Shown in pieces: positions 26,395-35,778 of a stretch of DNA of 64,000 nt (the first letter of the stretch is position 1; every line of letters starts with the position of its first letter). Both the position numbers and the translations under genes were made by a program. Source of the stretch: an uncultured archaeon (GTDB taxonomy: Archaea; Asgardarchaeota; Lokiarchaeia; Sigyniarchaeales; SOKP01); assembly GCA_964486045.1 (NCBI GenBank), contig CAZALK010000004.1, positions 64,001 through 128,000 on the forward strand, read 5' to 3'. The notes under the pieces are model-generated. The model searched no databases. It saw only the letters and a list, made by a program, of their open reading frames with translations, and had not been told where the DNA came from.

Positions 26395-26841
26395 TCAGAT
26401 TTTATGTGAGATAAATTCCTCGGGTGTGTATATTTTAATACCCTTGACCCATTTAAAGTGATTTTGGTTATAGCTAATAATATTTAATCTAAGATTTTCA
26501 CACTGTGTGCCGATCAGGAAGTCTCGGAAATGATGCCTAAATGGTAGGGTGAATCTATTATCTAAAGCATTTTTAAGAACATCTTTTTGCAGGATGGTAT
26601 CCCAATTAAGAAGTATCCCGTTAAACTTCCCAATTTCTTTCAGAAAATTCTCCCATGTAATGCCATTGACGATAAAATAATACCCTACTTCAAAACTCAC
26701 AATTGTAGGAATCGAAATCTTCATCTCAGACTTAAATTGTCTTAAATAATTGATAAAGTGGAGATTGCGAAACACATTTGAATCAAGGGCAATTTTTTCG
26801 AGCAACTCTTTATCCTTGCTTATGCTTGTTTTTTGACTCAC
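26395..26841 (-). CDS. PIN-domain toxin
   Basis: ALDSNVF, FEV and DFLIG motifs. Overlaps the upstream gene by 4 nt. Confidence 0.8.
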   Translation of the reverse strand: MSQKTSISKDKELLEKIALDSNVFRNLHFINYLRQFKSEMKISIPTIVSFEVGYYFIVNGITWENFLKEIGKFNGILLNWDTILQKDVLKNALDNRFTLPFRHHFRDFLIGTQCENLRLNIISYNQNHFKWVKGIKIYTPEEFISHKI

Positions 26842-27161
26842 GATTCCAACCCATAATCCCAGTTGTTTAACAAAATTTTGTCGAGTGAAATCCGTCCCTT
26901 TTTTAATTTTTGTTGGATAGTTTTAGTTTCAGGATCCTTTAACCATATTGCTTCTGTTGCGGCCTGAAGGATCGTTTCTATTTCTTTTTTGCCCGATTTT
27001 TCACTTGGATCTAAGTCTGAACCTTGATTAAGAATTACTTTTTTATATTGCGCAATCGCTCGTTTAATGAGTTCTCCCTGAGAGATATCTAACCAAGCTG
27101 CTAATTTTTTGATTGTTCTCCTTAAATCAGTATCAATGGCAACAGTTGTTTTAATCGTCAT
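26838..27161 (-). CDS. Ribbon-helix-helix antitoxin
   Basis: KTTVAIDTDLRRTIKKLAAWLDISQGELIKRAI. Confidence 0.8.
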   Translation of the reverse strand: MTIKTTVAIDTDLRRTIKKLAAWLDISQGELIKRAIAQYKKVILNQGSDLDPSEKSGKKEIETILQAATEAIWLKDPETKTIQQKLKKGRISLDKILLNNWDYGLES

Positions 27162-27463: not shown

Positions 27464-28663
27464 ATGTCTAAGGAAAAATTTGTAAGGAACAAACCTCATG
27501 TGAACATTGGAACTATTGCCTTAACAATATTTGGTATAATGTCTATAGTTTCGTTCGGAATGATGATATATATTGATATCATGGAAGAGCGAGATAGTGA
27601 TGGTGACACAATCTCAGATCTTGCAGAGGGTAATGCGGGTCATCCTTTATTCTTCGACACTTCGAATGATACTCTATCTTTTCATACATATGAGACAGGT
27701 ACGAGTAATCATGAAGTTGGTCATATTTTGGGTATTTCTCACGATGGGCTTAGTTCGCATGTAAGTGTACAATTAGGTCTGCATGATGACGTTTCCACAG
27801 CGACACCCATTCTTGACTTTAATATTAAATACGACTCTCTAATAGAGTTTTTTGACGGAAATGGAAATGGATTCTTTGACCCTGCAACAGATACGGTCAT
27901 AGGAAAAACAGCATTAAACAATATGCTACGATTAGGGTTTGGATTTGGGGTTGAAGGAGAGCCTGCTTATTATTCAAACTATTCTACTATTGATGGGGTA
28001 TTAAAAGTTGCTTTCTATACTGCTAGAGAACATGTATTACTAAGTCGTCAAGTTGGATTGTTGAGCCCCTTTGAGTTAAAATCTTCCATAACATTTACTG
28101 AATATACACGAATTACAGGCGGGACACACCTGGCTTTAAATCTTTCATTAAGTTCGAGTCATGATATAACATTTTCAGGAACAACTTTATCGGCAATATC
28201 TTCAACAGGGAACTATGAAGCGGTGTATGAATGGTATGATTGGGCAATAATAAACGGTGTTGAAACAAAAGTAAATACAACAGTGCCATCTTCTCCCATG
28301 TCTTTGAATCTTGGATCAATTTACATAAATTTCGGTGAGATAATAAACGGTACATATGATCCGAAATTATCTTGGCAAATACCAAGACCAAGTAGTTTTA
28401 ATATTACGGATCTACCTTGGTCGTATATTACAATTGGTTCTATTGGGTTAATAACGTTAGCTATGTCTGTAAAAAAGTTTAGGAAAAAACCTGGGCGAGT
28501 AACATATGAACCTATTAAATTTTCAGCAGAATCAGTGGATAAGGTTCCAAGAAAAAAGCCTGGACGAGTAACATATGAACCAATTAAATCTTCAACAGAA
28601 TCACGAGATAAGGTTCCAAGAAAAAAACCTGAGCGAGTAAAATATAGTGACATTCCTCCATAA
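27464..28663 (+). CDS. Two-TM membrane protein with mosaic motifs (EF-Tu N-terminal peptide, DSDGD, HExGHxxGxxH, C-terminal repeats)
   Basis: See finding. The frame stays open for 24 codons after the TAA, to 28738. Confidence 0.8.
   Translation: MSKEKFVRNKPHVNIGTIALTIFGIMSIVSFGMMIYIDIMEERDSDGDTISDLAEGNAGHPLFFDTSNDTLSFHTYETGTSNHEVGHILGISHDGLSSHVSVQLGLHDDVSTATPILDFNIKYDSLIEFFDGNGNGFFDPATDTVIGKTALNNMLRLGFGFGVEGEPAYYSNYSTIDGVLKVAFYTAREHVLLSRQVGLLSPFELKSSITFTEYTRITGGTHLALNLSLSSSHDITFSGTTLSAISSTGNYEAVYEWYDWAIINGVETKVNTTVPSSPMSLNLGSIYINFGEIINGTYDPKLSWQIPRPSSFNITDLPWSYITIGSIGLITLAMSVKKFRKKPGRVTYEPIKFSAESVDKVPRKKPGRVTYEPIKSSTESRDKVPRKKPERVKYSDIPP
28481..28660 (+). repeat. 69-bp tandem repeat (~2.6 units) encoding RKKPGRVTYEPIK...DKVP
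   Basis: Units start at 28481, 28550 and 28619. Confidence 0.9.
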
Positions 28664-29003
28664 CCAAAAGAATCATCAAAGACAATTACTAAATCCGAAA
28701 AGAGAATTCCGAAGACTTTACGTCATAGAGATAGATAAGAAAAAAGAATCAGACCCAGGAATATCCTTATAATTAAGGGATATTAAAATGTCTCTTTATA
28801 TATTTCTAATGATATAATAAAAATCCACAAAGAGGAGAAAAAATATATTCTAAGAGGAGAATTTCTAATTTTAATTCGGTAACCGTCTCAGGAAAAAACG
28901 ATTTTTTACAAATTCCTTTAATTTCGTGAATTTAACCAAAGACAGCTACTTATGTATGAAGAAGTGCTTAATTCCAAGAAACAATTCAAGAAAATTTTTT
29001 TTT

Positions 29004-29880: not shown

Positions 29881-30870
29881 ATGAAAGCGGTTGTATGGAC
29901 AAAATATGGTCCTCCGGAGGTTCTTCAGCTCAAAGAGGTAGAAAAACCTATTCCCAAAGACAATGAAGTCCTGATAAGAATATATGCGACAACAGTCACA
30001 AAAGGGGAGTGTGAGATTAGAGATCTCAATTTTCCTTTCTTATTTCGTTTCGTTATTCGAATAGGTTTAGGTTTCAGAAAACCAAAGAAAATAACTATAC
30101 TCGGGCAAGAGTTAGCCGGGGAAATTGAGTTAGTCGGCAAAGATGTAAAATTATTTAAGAAAGGTGACCAAGTTTTTGCTGCTACTGGTTCTAGACTTGG
30201 CGCTGATGCTGAGTATGTATGCCTGCCTGAAGAAGGAATGGTTGTACAAAAACCGACCAATATGACCTATGAGGAAGCCACCACCGTTCCTATTGGGGGG
30301 CTTACTGCATTACATCTTCTTAGAAAAGGAAATATCCAAAGCGGGGAAAAGGTTTTGATTAATGGTGCAGGTGGAAGTATAGGTACTATGGCGATACAGC
30401 TTGCAAAACTATTTGGGGCTGAAGTAACTGGTGTGGATAGCTCGAGTAAGTTGGACATGCTACGCTCTATTGGGGCAGATCATGTCATTGATTACACTCA
30501 AGAGGATTTTACCAAAAATGGTGAGACTTATGATGTTATTTTTGATGTGGTAGGTAAAAGCCTGTTATCACGTAGTAAAAGATCGCTTAACAAAAAAGGA
30601 TTCTATATTTTAGCCAACCCCAGTACTTCACAGAAGATTCGAGGCAGATGGATTGCAAAGACAAGTAGCAAAAAAGTAATATTTTGGTCAGAAAGCAAAG
30701 AGACAGAAGAATTATTATACCTTAAAGAGCTTATCGAAGCGGGAAAGATAAAAACTATCATTGATAGACAGTATCCGTTAGAACAAGTTGCCGAGGCCCA
30801 TAGTTATGTTGAATCAGGACAGAAAATAGGAAACGTAGTTATAACTGTAGGCCATTATGATAAAACCTAA
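29881..30870 (+). CDS. NAD(P)-dependent MDR oxidoreductase (zinc-independent, quinone-reductase-like)
   Basis: MKAVV..YGPPEVL, VLINGAGGSIG and GADHVIDY motifs. Confidence 0.92.
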   Translation: MKAVVWTKYGPPEVLQLKEVEKPIPKDNEVLIRIYATTVTKGECEIRDLNFPFLFRFVIRIGLGFRKPKKITILGQELAGEIELVGKDVKLFKKGDQVFAATGSRLGADAEYVCLPEEGMVVQKPTNMTYEEATTVPIGGLTALHLLRKGNIQSGEKVLINGAGGSIGTMAIQLAKLFGAEVTGVDSSSKLDMLRSIGADHVIDYTQEDFTKNGETYDVIFDVVGKSLLSRSKRSLNKKGFYILANPSTSQKIRGRWIAKTSSKKVIFWSESKETEELLYLKELIEAGKIKTIIDRQYPLEQVAEAHSYVESGQKIGNVVITVGHYDKT

Positions 30871-30933
30871 CAAGGTAACTGCACGGAATATTTTAATTAA
30901 TGAAGTAGATGGAAGAAAAAATGAAAAATACTA

Positions 30934-31869
30934 CTATTTTGAAATACCTAAAAGCTTTGCTGCATTATTACCTAAAATAGCTTTGACTTCCTCTTCTGTG
31001 AATTTTATTCCTTTAGGTGCGTTCTTCGGAAGGTTTTTAATTAGTTGAATATAATCCTTGGTTGGAATAACTATATCATAAACGGGTCCATCTGAGGCGA
31101 ACAATACTTTTTCCAATCCTGCGTAGTCTATTAAATCCCTTAATTCTCTACAGAATAATTCATATTTGCCGAATGCATAAGCCTGCCACATAGCCATATC
31201 TCCATATAAATTAGGATAAAATGCGGCGAGTGCTGCCCACTCCCTCCATCCGGGTGGACTACCCATATGAGCTCCAATGATCTTTAAGGAAGGGAGTTTA
31301 TTTGATGTTTCTGAGAGTAGAATTGGTTCAGTATATTTACATTGAGCAGGAGGTCCTAATGGTCCTGTATGGGTAAGTAAAATTCCCTCCTTTTTCTCCA
31401 AATATTTCAAAATTTTGATTGATTCTGGACTATTTGGATCGTATCCACTATCGCAGTGGTATTTCAACCCTTTCATCCCATATTCTTCAAAACATTGCTT
31501 CAACATGTCTAATGCGTTTTCTCTCCTTGGGTCGATTCCTGCAAAAGCCATTAAACGATCGGGATGTTTATTCGCTATATCTGCAATTCTTTTATTTAGC
31601 ATCTGAGCGATTTCCTCAGTCATCGCTTCATTATCTGCATTATCTACAGTATTTACGCATGTGAAATCAATACCGGCTTCATTCATCCATTTAATTAATT
31701 TTTCCCCGGTAACATCTGGATATCGTTCAGCACCTCTACGGGCTAAGGACTCCTCATCGATTTTTATCCCGGCCGCCTTAGCCAATCTAGATCTCTCTCC
31801 CATATTCCCCAATAAATCTTTATATTCTATCTGGTACGGACTTAGGTGATAATGCACATCAATAATCAT
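30934..31869 (-). CDS. Amidohydrolase_2 family protein
   Basis: IDVHYH, GLKYH, HTG, AHMG and LFASD motifs. Confidence 0.9.
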   Translation of the reverse strand: MIIDVHYHLSPYQIEYKDLLGNMGERSRLAKAAGIKIDEESLARRGAERYPDVTGEKLIKWMNEAGIDFTCVNTVDNADNEAMTEEIAQMLNKRIADIANKHPDRLMAFAGIDPRRENALDMLKQCFEEYGMKGLKYHCDSGYDPNSPESIKILKYLEKKEGILLTHTGPLGPPAQCKYTEPILLSETSNKLPSLKIIGAHMGSPPGWREWAALAAFYPNLYGDMAMWQAYAFGKYELFCRELRDLIDYAGLEKVLFASDGPVYDIVIPTKDYIQLIKNLPKNAPKGIKFTEEEVKAILGNNAAKLLGISK

Positions 31870-31981
31870 TTTTTTCCCTCTTTCTTATAATTTCCATTTT
31901 ATCCTTTAATTCTTATACAATATCATTATTTTAGAATAAAAAAACTTTTTGAGAATCAAATATTTGATTTTTTAAGTTGCT

Positions 31982-33427
31982 ATGTTGAATCAAATTGACT
32001 TTTTCGACAAATTATTTTATCCAAAAACTCTCGCCTTTATAGGTGCCAATCCAAGAAGAGTTTGGCATTTAAACGGTTACATAAACAGATTTCCAAAAGA
32101 TTCTCTATATATTGTTTCGAATTACATCGATGAGTTTATGGAAAACCATGAAGAGTTATTCAAAGGTGTGAATATCTGCAAGGATATTTCAGATATTCCT
32201 GATGAAATTGACCACAGTATAATTTCTGTAGGCAGAAATAGATTAATCAACACAATAAAGAAATGTTTAGAAAAAAAATTTTATACTATTCATGTTTTCT
32301 CTGCAGGAACTGGGGAATTCGATGAGAAGGGTTTTGAAATTGAAGCGGAATTGTATGATTTGTTCAAAAACAACGAAAATAGCCGACTTGTGGGTCCAAA
32401 TTGCATGGGAATTTACAGTCCAAGGGGAAGATTCTCATATAGTGGACGTTTTAGTGAACAGGCAGGAAATTTTGCATTAGTGTCTCAAAGTGGGGATCTT
32501 ACTAATCGGATTGTTTCTGGTCTAAATAGTAGAGGAGTTTATTCTTCTTTTGCGGCGAGTGTAGGTAATTCTATCAGTCTTAGATCTTCAGATTTGATAG
32601 ATTTCTATAATAGAGATGAAAATACGGATGTTATATTATCTTATATGGAGGGTTTTTCTCAATTTCGAAAATCAGAATTTGAAGGCAGAATTTTTTTCGA
32701 TTCATTGAAGGAAAATAAGAAGCCACTTCTTCTATTGAAAGGTGGAATTTCAGAATTAGGAAAAAGAGCAGCAAGTAGTCATACAGGGTCATTAGCATCC
32801 CAAAATCAAATATGGAATTCAATATACAAGCAAACAAATGCTATCCAAATAGTATCACTCGATGAATTATTAGATACTGCCGTGTTGTTTAGATTCTGTT
32901 CCAATTGTGAACCAAAACATAATAGTATACTAATGGTAACTTATAGTGGAGGATCTTCAGTGCTAGGCGTGGATTCAATTGCTCGTTTGAAAGCGGGAAT
33001 AAATGTTCCTGCGATTCGAGAACCTACTCATTCCAAAATGAAAGAGTTAATCAGAGTAGGTTCTATAACAAACCCTTTAGATCTTCCGGATGTTAGAGAT
33101 GAAAATCTCCGATTTGAGTTGTTTAAACTAGCTATTAGTGAGGAGTATATATCAGGTGCTATTCGTCTTAACCCCGGACCTAAATGGAGAGGAATGGATC
33201 AGGATGAAGAAGCATTAAAGAAATATTATGCAGATTTAAAGAGATATAAAGAAATTTGTGATAAATTAGGTAAACCATTAATGTTAACTATTCCGAATTC
33301 AAACGATGCTGATTTCAGAAAAAAGCTGATTGAAATGGAAATACCTGTGTTCTCCAGCTTTTCAAGGGCAGCTAAAGCTTTTTCCAATCTTTATCGTTTT
33401 AAAAATCCTAAAATTAAAGCAAATTAA
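31982..33427 (+). CDS. NDP-forming acyl-CoA synthetase alpha-like (CoA-binding) subunit
   Basis: GPNCMG, SQSG, SVGN, YMEG, AASSHTGSLA and NPLD motifs. Confidence 0.9.
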   Translation: MLNQIDFFDKLFYPKTLAFIGANPRRVWHLNGYINRFPKDSLYIVSNYIDEFMENHEELFKGVNICKDISDIPDEIDHSIISVGRNRLINTIKKCLEKKFYTIHVFSAGTGEFDEKGFEIEAELYDLFKNNENSRLVGPNCMGIYSPRGRFSYSGRFSEQAGNFALVSQSGDLTNRIVSGLNSRGVYSSFAASVGNSISLRSSDLIDFYNRDENTDVILSYMEGFSQFRKSEFEGRIFFDSLKENKKPLLLLKGGISELGKRAASSHTGSLASQNQIWNSIYKQTNAIQIVSLDELLDTAVLFRFCSNCEPKHNSILMVTYSGGSSVLGVDSIARLKAGINVPAIREPTHSKMKELIRVGSITNPLDLPDVRDENLRFELFKLAISEEYISGAIRLNPGPKWRGMDQDEEALKKYYADLKRYKEICDKLGKPLMLTIPNSNDADFRKKLIEMEIPVFSSFSRAAKAFSNLYRFKNPKIKAN

Positions 33428-33546
33428 AAGAATAATTTTATCTTTAGTATTTTTCTATTTCAATCTCAACGCTAGCAAAAAATTGAGAAGTATTTAAAGA
33501 ACTCTATATCATAAAAACTCTTTAAGAATGAAAATTTTTTTAAATT

Positions 33547-35778
33547 ATGACAGAAACGTTTGAATTTCAAGCTGAAATCAAAAAATTACTGAATATCCTC
33601 AGCAAATCGTTATATCAACATACCGAGGTGTTTCTTAGGGAACTCATTAGCAACTCGGTAGACGCTCTGAAAAAAATACACTTCATCTTGTTAACCAACC
33701 GTGATATTGAGAATCCCGATGTTGAGTTAAAAATAGAAGTATGGATCGATTCTGAAGCAAAGACCCTAACAGTCAAAGATACCGGAGTAGGGATGGTAAA
33801 AGATGACTTAATAAACGATCTTGGGACTATAGCTGGGAGTGGGACAGAAAAATTTGCTGCACAACTCGAACAACTAAAAGAAGAAGATAAGGAAAAATTA
33901 GATTTGGATATTATCGGTCAATTTGGAGTAGGTTTCTATTCAGTGTTTATGGTAGCTAATAATGTTTCAGTTCTTACAAAATCATACAAAAAAGAAGAAC
34001 CTGCACTCCATTGGGAATCGGAAGGCTCTGGTAATTTCTCTATAAAGGAAAATAAGCGAGAAATAAGAGGTACAGATGTAACTCTGCACATGAATGAGGA
34101 AGGAGTAGAATTTCTGAACCGATACCGAATTGAAGATATAATAAAGAAATATTCTAATTTTGTATCGTTTCCGATTTATGTAAGAGATCTGAAGGAAGAA
34201 CGAGATGCTGAGAAGCTGGGTAAGGAGAAGAAAGAAGAAGTCAAAAATAAGAAACCAGATGAAAAGAAAACGGAAGAAATTGATGAGGAGAAAGAGAAAA
34301 AAGAAGAGATTCCAAAACCTGTTAATGAGACCACACCTTTGTGGAAAAAATCTAAAAATAAGATAAGTGAAGACGATTATAAGAGCTTTTACCAATTTAT
34401 CTCCAAGCGTTATGATGAATATCAAGAAGTTATTAATTATCGTGTAGATGGTCAGGTACAATTCAAATCTATAATGTTTATTCCTAAAACACCCGATGAT
34501 AACTTATTTCAACAAGATACCGAGTACGGGCTAAGTTTATATTCTAATAACGTCATGATCATGGAACGATGTAAAGAACTCTTACCACAATGGATGAGAT
34601 TTGTTAGGGGGGTTGTGGAATCAGACGAAATTCCTTTAAATGTCGCAAGAGAAACTATCCAAACTAACCGGAAGATAAGAAAGATGAGTGATCTTCTGAT
34701 AAAAAGATTCTTACGAGAACTAAAAGGAAACGCAGAGCTTCATCCTGATAAGTATAAGAAATTCTGGGATGAATATGGTAGTTTTATCAAGGAAGGTCTA
34801 ATTCAGGACAGAATTCGAGAGAAACGCCTTAAAGAATTATTAAGATTTAAGACATCTAAGACCAATGATGATGAAGTCGTAGGATTTAAAGAATATGTGG
34901 AACGTTTGAAAGAAGGACAAGAGGATATCTATTATTTAGTTGGAGAAAATATTGATCGTATGAAACTTTCCCCCCATCTTGGATACTATCTTGAAAATGA
35001 CCTTGAAGTCATCCTCTTTGATACTACTATTGATAATTTCTTGATGATGAATATTCAAAATTACACGGTTACTGAAGGAGAAGGAGAGGATCAACAAGTA
35101 AAAATCTATAAATTAACTCCAATTGACATTTCTGAAAAAACTGAAGAGAGTAAAGACGAAAAGGATACAAAAAAAGAAAAGAAAAAGGAAAAGCTGCCAA
35201 AAGATACTAGAAAGTTCTTAGAACGGGTAAAAAAAATAGTTGGTGATAAAATTGTTGATGTTAAAGTTTCCAATGTATTGCATAATTATCCTTGTAGATT
35301 AGCGACACCAGCAGAAGGGCCCTCCTCTAGCATGCAGCGAGCCATGCGTTATTGGACACATATTAAGGGTACTGATACATTTGAAATTCCAAGAAAAATA
35401 TTTGAACTTAATCCCGACCATCCCTTAATCAGAGATCTTATAAAATTACACTCTGAGGATCCTAAGAGTAAAAAAATTGAGCCCGTAGTACTTCAATTAT
35501 TCGAGAATAGCTTAGTCTCTGAGGGAGATCTCCCCGAACCTGCTTCAATGGTTCCCAGAATTAACCAAATTCTTGAGATGTTCATAACCGGAAAAGATGA
35601 TGTAGAGCGAATTGAACCGAAGAAACAAGATATTACTGACAACGAGATAAAGGAAGAAGAGCCAGACAAAGAAAAAGATGATGCAGAAGAAGAAGAACTA
35701 TTAAATGAACAAAAAAAAACTTCTACCAGAAATGCTGATGGGAAAATCATAGTTGATGTGGATCTTGAGGATGACTAA
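33547..35778 (+). CDS. htpG: Hsp90/HtpG chaperone
   Basis: FEFQAE, FLRELISN, DTGVGM, IGQFGVGFYS, PLW, F.RGVV.S..IPLNVARE and ELNPDHP motifs. Confidence 0.96.
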   Translation: MTETFEFQAEIKKLLNILSKSLYQHTEVFLRELISNSVDALKKIHFILLTNRDIENPDVELKIEVWIDSEAKTLTVKDTGVGMVKDDLINDLGTIAGSGTEKFAAQLEQLKEEDKEKLDLDIIGQFGVGFYSVFMVANNVSVLTKSYKKEEPALHWESEGSGNFSIKENKREIRGTDVTLHMNEEGVEFLNRYRIEDIIKKYSNFVSFPIYVRDLKEERDAEKLGKEKKEEVKNKKPDEKKTEEIDEEKEKKEEIPKPVNETTPLWKKSKNKISEDDYKSFYQFISKRYDEYQEVINYRVDGQVQFKSIMFIPKTPDDNLFQQDTEYGLSLYSNNVMIMERCKELLPQWMRFVRGVVESDEIPLNVARETIQTNRKIRKMSDLLIKRFLRELKGNAELHPDKYKKFWDEYGSFIKEGLIQDRIREKRLKELLRFKTSKTNDDEVVGFKEYVERLKEGQEDIYYLVGENIDRMKLSPHLGYYLENDLEVILFDTTIDNFLMMNIQNYTVTEGEGEDQQVKIYKLTPIDISEKTEESKDEKDTKKEKKKEKLPKDTRKFLERVKKIVGDKIVDVKVSNVLHNYPCRLATPAEGPSSSMQRAMRYWTHIKGTDTFEIPRKIFELNPDHPLIRDLIKLHSEDPKSKKIEPVVLQLFENSLVSEGDLPEPASMVPRINQILEMFITGKDDVERIEPKKQDITDNEIKEEEPDKEKDDAEEEELLNEQKKTSTRNADGKIIVDVDLEDD

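Follow-up and report, generated by a model that had tools for sequence, protein, structure and literature searches.

The window, the whole 64,000-nucleotide stretch of DNA analysed here, carries a gene for a two-pass membrane glycoprotein of 399 aa, P0001, at 27464..28663 of the plus strand, on which all features described below are located. The gene was delimited by the ORF list, its translation and homologues. In the preliminary description it had been given the span 27464-28738. The start was correct, whereas the open reading frame ends earlier at a TAA stop codon (28661-28663). This in-frame TAA is followed by 24 codons for the conserved tail of the family (…SEKRIPKTLRHRDR) and by another TAA (28661..28738). 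The in-frame stretch between the P0001 stop codon and 28738 reads PKESSKTITKSEKRIPKTLRHRDR and is closed by a stop. In relatives the corresponding sequence, IPPSPK…EKRIPxTLRHRDR, is not interrupted by a stop. The TAA was also found in an independent sample, and a relative from another study has TGA instead at the same codon. No match to the stop-codon site was found among JGI metagenome contigs.

Translation of 27464-28738 confirmed all peptides reported previously for this gene at their positions. These are MSKEKFVRNKPHVNIGTI (27464-27517), DSDGDTISD (27593) and HEVGHILGISHDG (27710-27748) as well as IEFFDGNGNGFFD, two copies of RKKPGRVTYEPI and RKKPERVKYSDI. A mis-join, which had been named as a possible cause, was excluded. 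The entire gene is present in colinear form, with eight substitutions and without joints, on an independent contig of 9.6 kb that stems from a different sample, and the architecture is common to 88 homologues.

P0001 is predicted to span the membrane twice with both ends inside the cell (N-in/C-in). Hydropathy, an AF2 model and the charge distribution define TM1 as a probably uncleaved signal-anchor at about residues 17-40 (27512..27583), with a hydropathy peak at 17-35 and an AF2 helix at 15-41. TM2 (28418..28477) corresponds to the AF2 helix at about residues 319-338 and follows an invariant LPW, of which P318 and W319 are invariant in the family alignment. The charges are +3 before TM1, -6 after TM1 and +7 after TM2. 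According to this prediction, the cytoplasm would hold only the approximately 16 N-terminal residues and the basic C-terminal tail. Display of the N-terminus as an elf18 PAMP, which had been proposed earlier, does not fit such a cytosolic position. In the P0001 clade the 16-residue cytosolic peptide precedes a long hydrophobic anchor lacking an obvious cleavage site; distant superfamily members fit a type I layout.

Between the two membrane segments lies a predicted extracellular beta-sandwich of the GLMP/NCU-G1 type with six N-glycosylation sequons (residues 41-317; 27584..28414). The ectodomain model is all-beta with a pLDDT of 91.6 and a pTM of 0.89, values obtained with an alignment dominated by relatives without HExGH; a clade-only model had low confidence in the HExGH region. 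In a Foldseek search the top match of the model was GLMP (6nyq_C, E 2.3e-9, TM 0.60/0.54). VIA-align, which was run without Foldseek, likewise retrieved GLMP (8r8q_B) with a Z-score of 18.5 and an rmsd of 3.3 over 225 aa, the next-best match having 13.1. Among the Atlas entries, a eukaryotic NCU-G1 cluster gave the best TM by query (0.73). The published description of the GLMP fold agrees with the ectodomain model (PMC11252000). Weak matches to PF15065 (NCU-G1) were found in 32 of 128 superfamily members, collinear within the ectodomain and with a best E of 1.2e-5; three individually inspected relatives scored 12.5-17.3 bits, the gathering score being 27 bits. P0001 itself did not match PF15065 at E<=10, the superfamily profile did not reach GLMP among the PDB sequences, and a protein-atlas feature search with the ectodomain returned no usable named match. 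Taken together, the modelled fold and the weak sequence signal indicate that the ectodomain appears to adopt the GLMP/NCU-G1 fold. None of the papers found in a literature search linked GLMP/NCU-G1 to archaea or Asgard.

The scaffold itself, described previously as a host scaffold with additions, belongs to a large archaeal superfamily. About 180 representatives share a signal or anchor, an acidic DxDGD loop, a beta domain, a C-terminal TM helix and a basic tail. The DSDGDTISD peptide (27593..27619) is this acidic loop and, judged by superfamily conservation, native to the scaffold; D44 is nearly invariant superfamily-wide and the consensus reads DxDxDGxxDxxE. A second hallmark of the superfamily is LIEFFDGNGNGFFD (residues 126-139; 27839..27880) with a DxNxNG loop; in the 128-sequence alignment, E128 and D131 of this peptide show no or almost no variation.

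The 88 homologues of P0001 were found in Asgard MAGs at 44-85% identity. The family is patchy (17/400 genomes), and the motif-bearing gene occurs once per genome. All motifs are near-invariant across the homologues and constitute the most conserved parts of these proteins, with column identities of 0.94 for the N-terminus, 0.87 for REHVLL, 0.85 for HExGH and 0.5-0.7 for the remainder. They are clade-specific additions and not variable insertions at fixed positions, as had been considered. In the tree, a 99% branch groups the rows bearing the N-terminus together; P0092 and P0093, which have the N-terminus only, are placed outside a 100% clade with all four motifs. Two gain steps suffice to account for the motifs, the HExGH and REH segments having both appeared on the same long stem branch. 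The four seemingly foreign motifs are fixed, clade-defining features that were gained stepwise. A genome-wide six-frame regex search detected the EF-Tu-like N-terminus, REHxLLxRQxG, RKKPGR and RIPxTLRHRDR patterns only in the P0001 gene. Conserved neighbours or an operon around the family genes were not found; in the 12 contexts compared, an alpha/beta-hydrolase was nearby in three and an MFS transporter adjacent in one.

The first ectodomain motif, HEVGHILGISH (residues 83-93; 27710..27742), has the metzincin-like signature HExGHxxGxxH and is located in a predicted beta-strand (strand 45-54 of the ectodomain model). Within the clade H83, E84, G86 and H87 are invariant and H93 is near-invariant; P0080 has lost the third His, and G90 is replaced by Asp in many relatives (HEVGHNLDISH). 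Pfam metzincin models matched P0001 with E 0.23-0.48 over approximately 20 aa, and several members gave weak matches to the Reprolysin, Matrixin and Met-zincin models. The family alignment contains no invariant or near-invariant Met as candidate for a Met-turn from residue 94 to the sandwich core, and no peptidase was among the listed top structural matches of the ectodomain in Foldseek and VIA. A complete metzincin fold was not predicted, and the ectodomain as modelled is not a metzincin. In distant relatives, strands such as KNEIEFSIKNES can be aligned to the motif without gaps.

A second EF-Tu-like segment, which is absent from the earlier peptide list, emerged from a phmmer alignment with PDB sequences. 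REHVLLSRQVGL (residues 188-199; 28025..28060) lies within AREHVLLSRQVGL (residues 187-199; 28022-28060), which aligns with EF-Tu 116-128. Its score of 55 compares with 35.4 +/- 5.0 for shuffled sequences, 7 of 2000 of which reached 55, so that the similarity is marginal. The segment is part of a strand and loop in the ectodomain model and aligns with PEEFVLV-NNT--IVTP of distant relatives, the sole difference being a two-residue insert. Since ordinary strands of distant relatives correspond to HExGHxxGxxH and REHVLLxRQVG with few or no gaps, both motifs were made in place, by substitutions inside pre-existing strands. These two motifs therefore have gradually diverged equivalents. A single capture event, or mimicry, stays in consideration solely for the N-terminal extension and possibly for the tail.

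The cytosolic N-terminal 16-mer MSKEKFVRNKPHVNIG (27464..27511) resembles bacterial EF-Tu by identity to TufA, NCBIfam matches and conservation. Fourteen of the 18 N-terminal residues are identical to E. coli TufA with Met1 anchored to Met1, and the local score is 77 against TufA versus 36 against the genome's own EF-1alpha. NCBIfam EF-Tu models match with E 6.5e-5. Furthermore, the peptide contains FxRxK, an insert by which bacterial EF-Tu differs from the archaeal factor. The match stops at residue 18-24, before the P-loop. All this bears out the previous assignment to the bacterial type of EF-Tu, and the likeness is statistically real. The P-loop GHVDHGK and the G domain are absent from P0001, GH[VI]DHGK being found elsewhere in the genome. 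Not only are the parent domains missing from the protein, as had been stated, but the genome, which is 99% complete, also lacks bacterial EF-Tu and gp19 proteins. Codons for the 16-mer vary synonymously among family members. Its mean pairwise identity of 0.91 compares with 0.58 for the ectodomain and 0.48 for TM1, and this near-invariance far exceeds what a generic signal-anchor front needs. In the literature, the peptide strings turned up only in EF-Tu papers. The same N-terminus heads 91-aa mini proteins devoid of an ectodomain, and both ends of P0093 match those of a mini protein. N-terminal peptide, TM hairpin and tail thus form a cassette, which also occurs ectodomain-free. In the protein-atlas feature search the mini protein gave only sub-0.9 matches to generic small membrane proteins.

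The cytosolic tail (28481..28654) consists of three RKKP(G/E)RV(T/K)Y..I units at 28481-28516, 28550-28585 and 28619-28654, which belong to a 69-nt tandem repeat (TRF: period 69, 2.4 copies, 28483-28645). Relatives carry one or two units. A similarity to gp19-type tail-tube proteins, noted previously, was detectable in basal relatives and undetectable with the tail of P0001 itself. The basal tail sequence RKRPGRVKYSDITLKKG matches positions 41-61 of the PF06841 HMM with E 0.016-0.045 and 14-15.4 bits (gathering 28.2), and it resembles LPGAVKYSDVTLSK of the Nostoc phage N1 tube protein in 10 of 14 residues. The tail of P0001 matched neither a PHROG tail family nor a PDB entry, the relatives' tails found nothing among the PHROGs, and the P0084 tail retrieved only an antibody light chain from the PDB sequences (E 0.95). 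The tail-tube resemblance of the basal relatives is weak but real.

Four signature-peptide look-alikes in one family are more than can comfortably be called coincidence, a point that also weighs against the interpretation favored below. According to an explanation by coincidence all resemblances except the fold would have arisen by chance, the N-terminus being the basic front of a signal-anchor with an accidental likeness to EF-Tu. The N-termini of distant relatives are indeed basic (e.g. MSKMKTLHKKK), the second EF-Tu segment is of marginal significance and the gp19 matches are sub-threshold. However, n-regions normally evolve freely, while this one is near-invariant next to a TM1 that is 48% identical in the family, and its identities are anchored at Met1 and include the bacterial-type insert. 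We attribute very little probability to pure chance. The opposite explanation, an ongoing process that inserts foreign pieces of 10-20 aa into a host scaffold, had been put forward in the preliminary description. Four look-alike segments in one protein and a modular tail, in which repeat copy number and appended segments differ between relatives, would be in line with such a peptide capture. In contrast, the motifs are fixed in the 88 homologues and the tree gives stepwise single gains in only two steps. Two of the motifs replace native strands gap-free or near gap-free, ordinary 69-nt tandem duplication explains the variation of the tail, and no repeats, integrase or template-like element were found near the gene. 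Ongoing capture is largely refuted and hardly credible any more.

A functional reading of the HExGHxxGxxH segment would make P0001 a membrane-anchored extracellular zinc metallopeptidase, in which a GLMP-like scaffold carries a working HExxHxxGxxH site, possibly completed by E189/H190; it would then represent a new minimal protease or another enzyme dependent on zinc. The exact signature with its conserved His, Glu and Gly residues, the weak peptidase-model matches of several members and the joint gain of HExGH and REH, the most conserved parts of the ectodomain, all favor a catalytic site, and the clade-only model is unsure in this region, where a helix is possible. However, the approximately 40 residues between TM1 and the motif are too few for a metzincin N-subdomain, and the modelled strand would separate H83, H87 and H93 too widely to bind a single metal ion. 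The lack of a conserved Met-turn, the frequent Gly to Asp exchange, the third His missing in P0080, the positional homology to a plain strand and the short Pfam matches far below threshold also argue against a peptidase, which we regard as unlikely. In another scenario, EF-Tu-like N-terminus and tube-like tail would imitate bacterial or phage proteins and thereby intercept factors from bacteria or viruses, such as EF-Tu-needing toxins or injected tubes, and P0001 would represent a class of 'collage' proteins. Both peptides are strongly conserved cytosolic extensions resembling the most conserved stretches of their parents, both parents are absent from the genome, and the patchy distribution is as often seen for accessory or defence genes. 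Yet no defence island or mobile-element context surrounds the gene, the peptides lack variability or an arms-race signature, and the two ectodomain words are not in the conformation of their parents in the model. Moreover, the tail-tube match is weak (E ~0.02), the tail of P0001 has drifted from the motif, and we know of no archaeal system recognising a free EF-Tu N-terminal peptide. Such a decoy function is highly improbable. A more far-reaching version considers N-terminus and tail as true mimics of bacterial and phage proteins, which in conflicts between organisms would act as decoys or docking sites and represent one instance of a widespread undescribed class of exported or membrane proteins, with GLMP separately descending from the archaeal family; we give this a small chance.

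On balance, P0001 is probably a member of an Asgard-specific clade within an archaeal surface glycoprotein family, equipped with a GLMP-like ectodomain and cytosolic docking peptides. Two TM passes would hold an all-beta, glycosylatable sandwich of about 280 residues outside the cell, and the TM hairpin is extended at one end by the EF-Tu-like 16-mer and at the other by the gp19-like RKxPGRVKYxDI tail. The N-terminal peptide might have a single origin. In the simplest case, the 5′ end of a tuf gene of bacterial type would have been captured and would have provided the start codon and the charged front of the signal-anchor; the flanking DNA contains no trace of such a capture. Together with the tail, the peptide may serve as a short cytosolic docking site for a conserved partner, and this role might be the reason for its near-invariance since its origin. 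By analogy to GLMP, the ectodomain could belong to a membrane complex, in which it would have an accessory, shielding or sensing function. The conserved His and Glu residues of its two motifs may form a clade-specific metal site rather than a metzincin domain.

If the similarity to GLMP reflects homology, this lysosomal membrane glycoprotein gets an archaeal root, and a large uncharacterised archaeal family gets a working model in which it provides a membrane complex with an accessory or shielding subunit. Several Asgard membrane-protein architectures have kept a 16-residue copy of the EF-Tu N-terminus at their start in archaea that lack EF-Tu, which makes this short, strongly selected peptide a clean and testable example. 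The identity of its binding partner would separate a captured export-signal front from a functional mimic.

Among known proteins, P0001 can first be compared with GLMP. The likeness extends over the whole ectodomain fold and includes a similar size (~400 aa), N-glycosylation sequons and, at the C-terminal end, a TM helix with a short and basic tail in the cytosol. GLMP is a type I protein with a cleaved signal peptide, a single C-terminal TM helix and a short cytosolic tail, and forms an obligate complex with an MFS transporter of the MFSD1 type. In contrast, P0001 is archaeal, is about 9% identical in sequence to the solved chains, and combines a probably uncleaved anchor bearing the EF-Tu-like peptide with the clade-specific HExGH and REHVLL segments. 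With residues 1-18 of bacterial EF-Tu (the elf18 region) it shares its start from Met1, but P-loop, G domain and domains II/III are lacking and the peptide runs directly into a TM helix. EF-Tu helix C (117-128, REHILLGRQVGV) has its counterpart in REHVLLSRQVGL, whereas the P0001 segment is extracellular, modelled as strand and loop, and derived from a native scaffold strand. Metzincins have the 11-residue HExxHxxGxxH signature in common with P0001, in which it occurs outside a catalytic-domain fold, without a Met-turn and in a modelled beta-strand, the Gly and the third His being variable in the clade. Finally, T4 gp19 tube proteins (PF06841) resemble the RKRPGRVKYSDITLKKG tails of the basal relatives at HMM positions 41-61. 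This likeness covers only about 18 of 134 positions below threshold, in a cytosolic tail after a TM helix, and the copies in P0001 have drifted (VTYEPIK) in a genome devoid of a tube or sheath gene.

Translation of 27464-28738 recovered, at the coordinates given, every peptide that the preliminary description had reported for P0001, the two-pass membrane protein of the window. The open reading frame proper extends from 27464 to 28663 (+), encodes 399 aa and terminates with a TAA codon at 28661-28663. Its GC content of 0.35-0.38 is similar to that of the surrounding DNA. A mis-join was discounted because the entire gene is present in colinear arrangement on an 85x-depth contig of a second sample. 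The family comprises 88 further Asgard proteins from many independent metagenome bins and assemblies, which are 44-85% identical to P0001 over the full length; none is annotated or has a Pfam domain on record. Alignment of 32 homologues displayed invariant or near-invariant segments, namely the EF-Tu-like N-terminus, DxDGD, HExGH…H, EHVLLxRQVG, LPW preceding TM2, RKKPGRVKY and the C-terminal EKRIPxTLRHRDR. Column identity amounted to 0.94 in the N-terminal 16 residues, 0.87 in REHVLL and 0.85 in HExGH, compared to 0.5-0.7 in the remainder, and mean pairwise identity was 0.91 for the N-terminus, against 0.48 within TM1 and 0.58 within the ectodomain. Of 400 genomes of the phylum scanned with a DNA pattern, 17 contain the N-terminal motif, each in one copy and with freely varying synonymous codons. 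As the pattern fixed most amino acids, the scan is informative for synonymous variation only, and protein-level conservation is based on the homologue search and alignment.

Past the TAA codon, 75 bases stay in frame and encode PKESSKTITKSEKRIPKTLRHRDR before a further stop; the in-frame TAA and 24 codons for the conserved C-terminal tail of the family thus occupy 28661-28738 (+). At this codon, occupied by Ser in the closest comparable relatives, all other family members read through to EKRIPxTLRHRDR. The TAA is also present in the second sample, and a more divergent relative from another study carries a TGA at the same position. Three of the four downstream changes listed for this relative are synonymous in the extended frame, a total of four being too small for significance. 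The TAA may have truncated the protein recently, leaving a short tail like that of basal members, or could be read through.

A profile search against 1.8 billion representatives revealed about 180 clusters sharing one architecture, in which an N-terminal signal or anchor and an acidic DxDGD linker precede a beta domain bearing the LIEFxDxNxNGxYxP hallmark, and the C-terminal part is made up of a TM helix and a short basic tail. As linker and hallmark belong to this superfamily architecture, DSDGD and IEFFDGNGNGFFD of P0001 are native to the scaffold. Charges of +3 before TM1, -6 after TM1 and +7 after TM2, together with six sequons in the ectodomain, predict an N-in/C-in glycoprotein. An initial full-length model of P0001 was of mediocre quality. 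A model of residues 40-320 calculated with 140 relatives was all beta, with a pLDDT of 91.6 and a pTM of 0.89.

Both ectodomain motifs arose in place. In a deep alignment, NHEVGHILGISHDG aligns gap-free with strands of distant relatives such as KNEIEFSIKNES and KHELQINVELQE, and REHVLL-SRQVG--LLSP lies over PEEFVLV-NNT----IVTP with a two-residue insertion as sole gap. The confident model shows both segments as strand or strand-loop, the assignment for HExGH leaning on relatives without the motif. Their counterparts in the parent proteins, metzincins and EF-Tu (helix C), are helical. A PDB sequence search extended the list of EF-Tu-like pieces by AREHVLLSRQVGL (residues 187-199 versus EF-Tu 116-128), which is marginal on its own, its score being reached by 7 of 2000 shuffles. 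A metzincin fold was ruled out, since HExGH follows TM1 by only about 40 residues, no Met-turn is conserved after it in the homologue alignment, its Gly is often Asp, the third His is lost in one lineage and Pfam metzincin matches on P0001 cover about 20 residues (E 0.23-0.48). A clade-specific His/Glu metal site is possible. The sole other HExGHxxGxxH of the genome, HELGHTFGLKHC on contig C1 (123999-124031, -), resembles an archaemetzincin-type signature.

The tail of P0001 consists of three RKKP(G/E)RV(T/K)Y..I units derived from a 69-nt tandem repeat; relatives carry one or two. The resemblance to phage tail tubes proposed earlier exists in basal relatives and is weak; it has partly decayed in the window's copy, with which the tail-tube test was negative. 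Basal tails read RKRPGRVKY[SG]DITLKKG, and three of them match PF06841 as their sole family (HMM 41-61, E 0.016-0.045). The top tblastn match among 50,697 phage records (LPGAVKYSDVTLSK; E = 5, not significant on its own) lies in a protein of Nostoc phage N1 annotated as tail tube, inside the PF06841 region of that protein. The genome itself has neither a PF06841 nor a sheath gene.

The N-terminus shares 14 of 18 residues with E. coli TufA from Met1 (local score 77, versus 36 for the genome's own EF-1alpha, starting MPTNKPHLNLVVIGHIDHGK), and NCBIfam EF-Tu models match residues 1-24 (E 6.5e-5). The genome, 99% complete, lacks a gene for bacterial EF-Tu. Residues 1-19 also match phrog_27465, a 59-position phage family of unassigned function (E 0.009). 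P0092 and P0093, representing two outlying lineages, keep the N-terminal peptide and are devoid of HExGH, REHVLL and RKKPGRVKY. In a quick maximum-likelihood tree, which included the N-terminal columns and has P0092 and P0093 on long branches, a 99% branch sets all N-terminus-bearing proteins apart, with the four-motif clade nested within them on a long 100% stem. In genomes of family f31, the only peptide-bearing gene encodes 83-97 residues, in which the peptide leads into TM1, a short loop connects TM1 to TM2 and a short basic tail closes the chain (L031:9718-9996, -; L032:9937-10221, +; L035:9715-10002, -; L038:3152-3436, -). These mini proteins (45 clusters, Thorarchaeota labels) start with MSKEKFVRDKPHVNIG and end in either KGKKILQN or R(A/V)RIPKHxPEWTN. 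P0093 resembles a mini protein at both ends, in residues 1-33 and in its last 18 residues. Mini proteins and this two-end match indicate that peptide, TM hairpin and tail form a cassette occurring with or without the ectodomain.

The idea of ongoing peptide capture or diversification is not supported, as all motifs are fixed, two steps account for their gain and two of them were made in place. On the favoured account, the 5′ end of a tuf gene was captured once, anciently, as a signal-anchor front and was later kept as a docking peptide. Mimicry of bacterial or phage proteins by the P0001 motifs is conceivable, but the positive support for it consists of the resemblances themselves. The robust oddity of P0001 is its near-invariant EF-Tu-like cytosolic start.

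P0001 is surrounded by unrelated metabolic genes, and no conserved neighbour was found across 12 contexts of family members. In three of them (L025/L029, L027, L034), the family member has an alpha/beta-hydrolase gene (Abhydrolase_1/Hydrolase_4) one or two genes away, which the window lacks. On contig C2 of the same genome (~30150-35553, L002-L004), three ordinary superfamily paralogues, 23-27% identical to P0001, occur in tandem, one adjoined by an ORF that reads as winged-helix-like. In some superfamily members, the cytosolic tail continues into a fused HTH domain (HTH_HVO_0163_N, HTH_24, MarR). Together with the winged-helix-like neighbour, this suggests that the superfamily transmits information or contacts through the membrane by way of its tail. 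Just upstream of P0001 on the other strand (26395-27161, -), two overlapping small ORFs, one for a ribbon-helix-helix (CopG) protein of 107 aa and one for a protein of 148 aa without family, are possibly a toxin-antitoxin-like pair. At 33547-35778 (+), the window encodes a member of the Hsp90 family with 743 aa (PF00183, E 1.9e-111). Archaea rarely have Hsp90, and the gene may be of bacterial HtpG-like or of eukaryote-like origin.

The best-supported new fact is the GLMP-like nature of the scaffold. Foldseek with the ectodomain model retrieved the GLMP luminal domain (6nyq_C, E 2.3e-9, TM 0.60/0.54; 8r8q_B, E 2.5e-7) ahead of the next match (E 7.6e-6, TM 0.43). VIA-align, which is independent of Foldseek, gave a Z of 18.5 for 8r8q_B (rmsd 3.3 Å over 225 residues) and 13.1 for the next match. 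In the ESM Atlas, the top TM by query (0.73) belonged to a eukaryotic cluster, 99% PF15065, among archaeal hypothetical clusters. At the sequence level, PF15065 matched 32 of 128 superfamily members (best E 1.2e-5); the matches examined were collinear inside the ectodomain and below threshold. The GLMP luminal domain is a beta-sandwich resembling the dimerisation domain of cellodextrin phosphorylase (PMC11252000), an enzyme that was also among the matches retrieved here.
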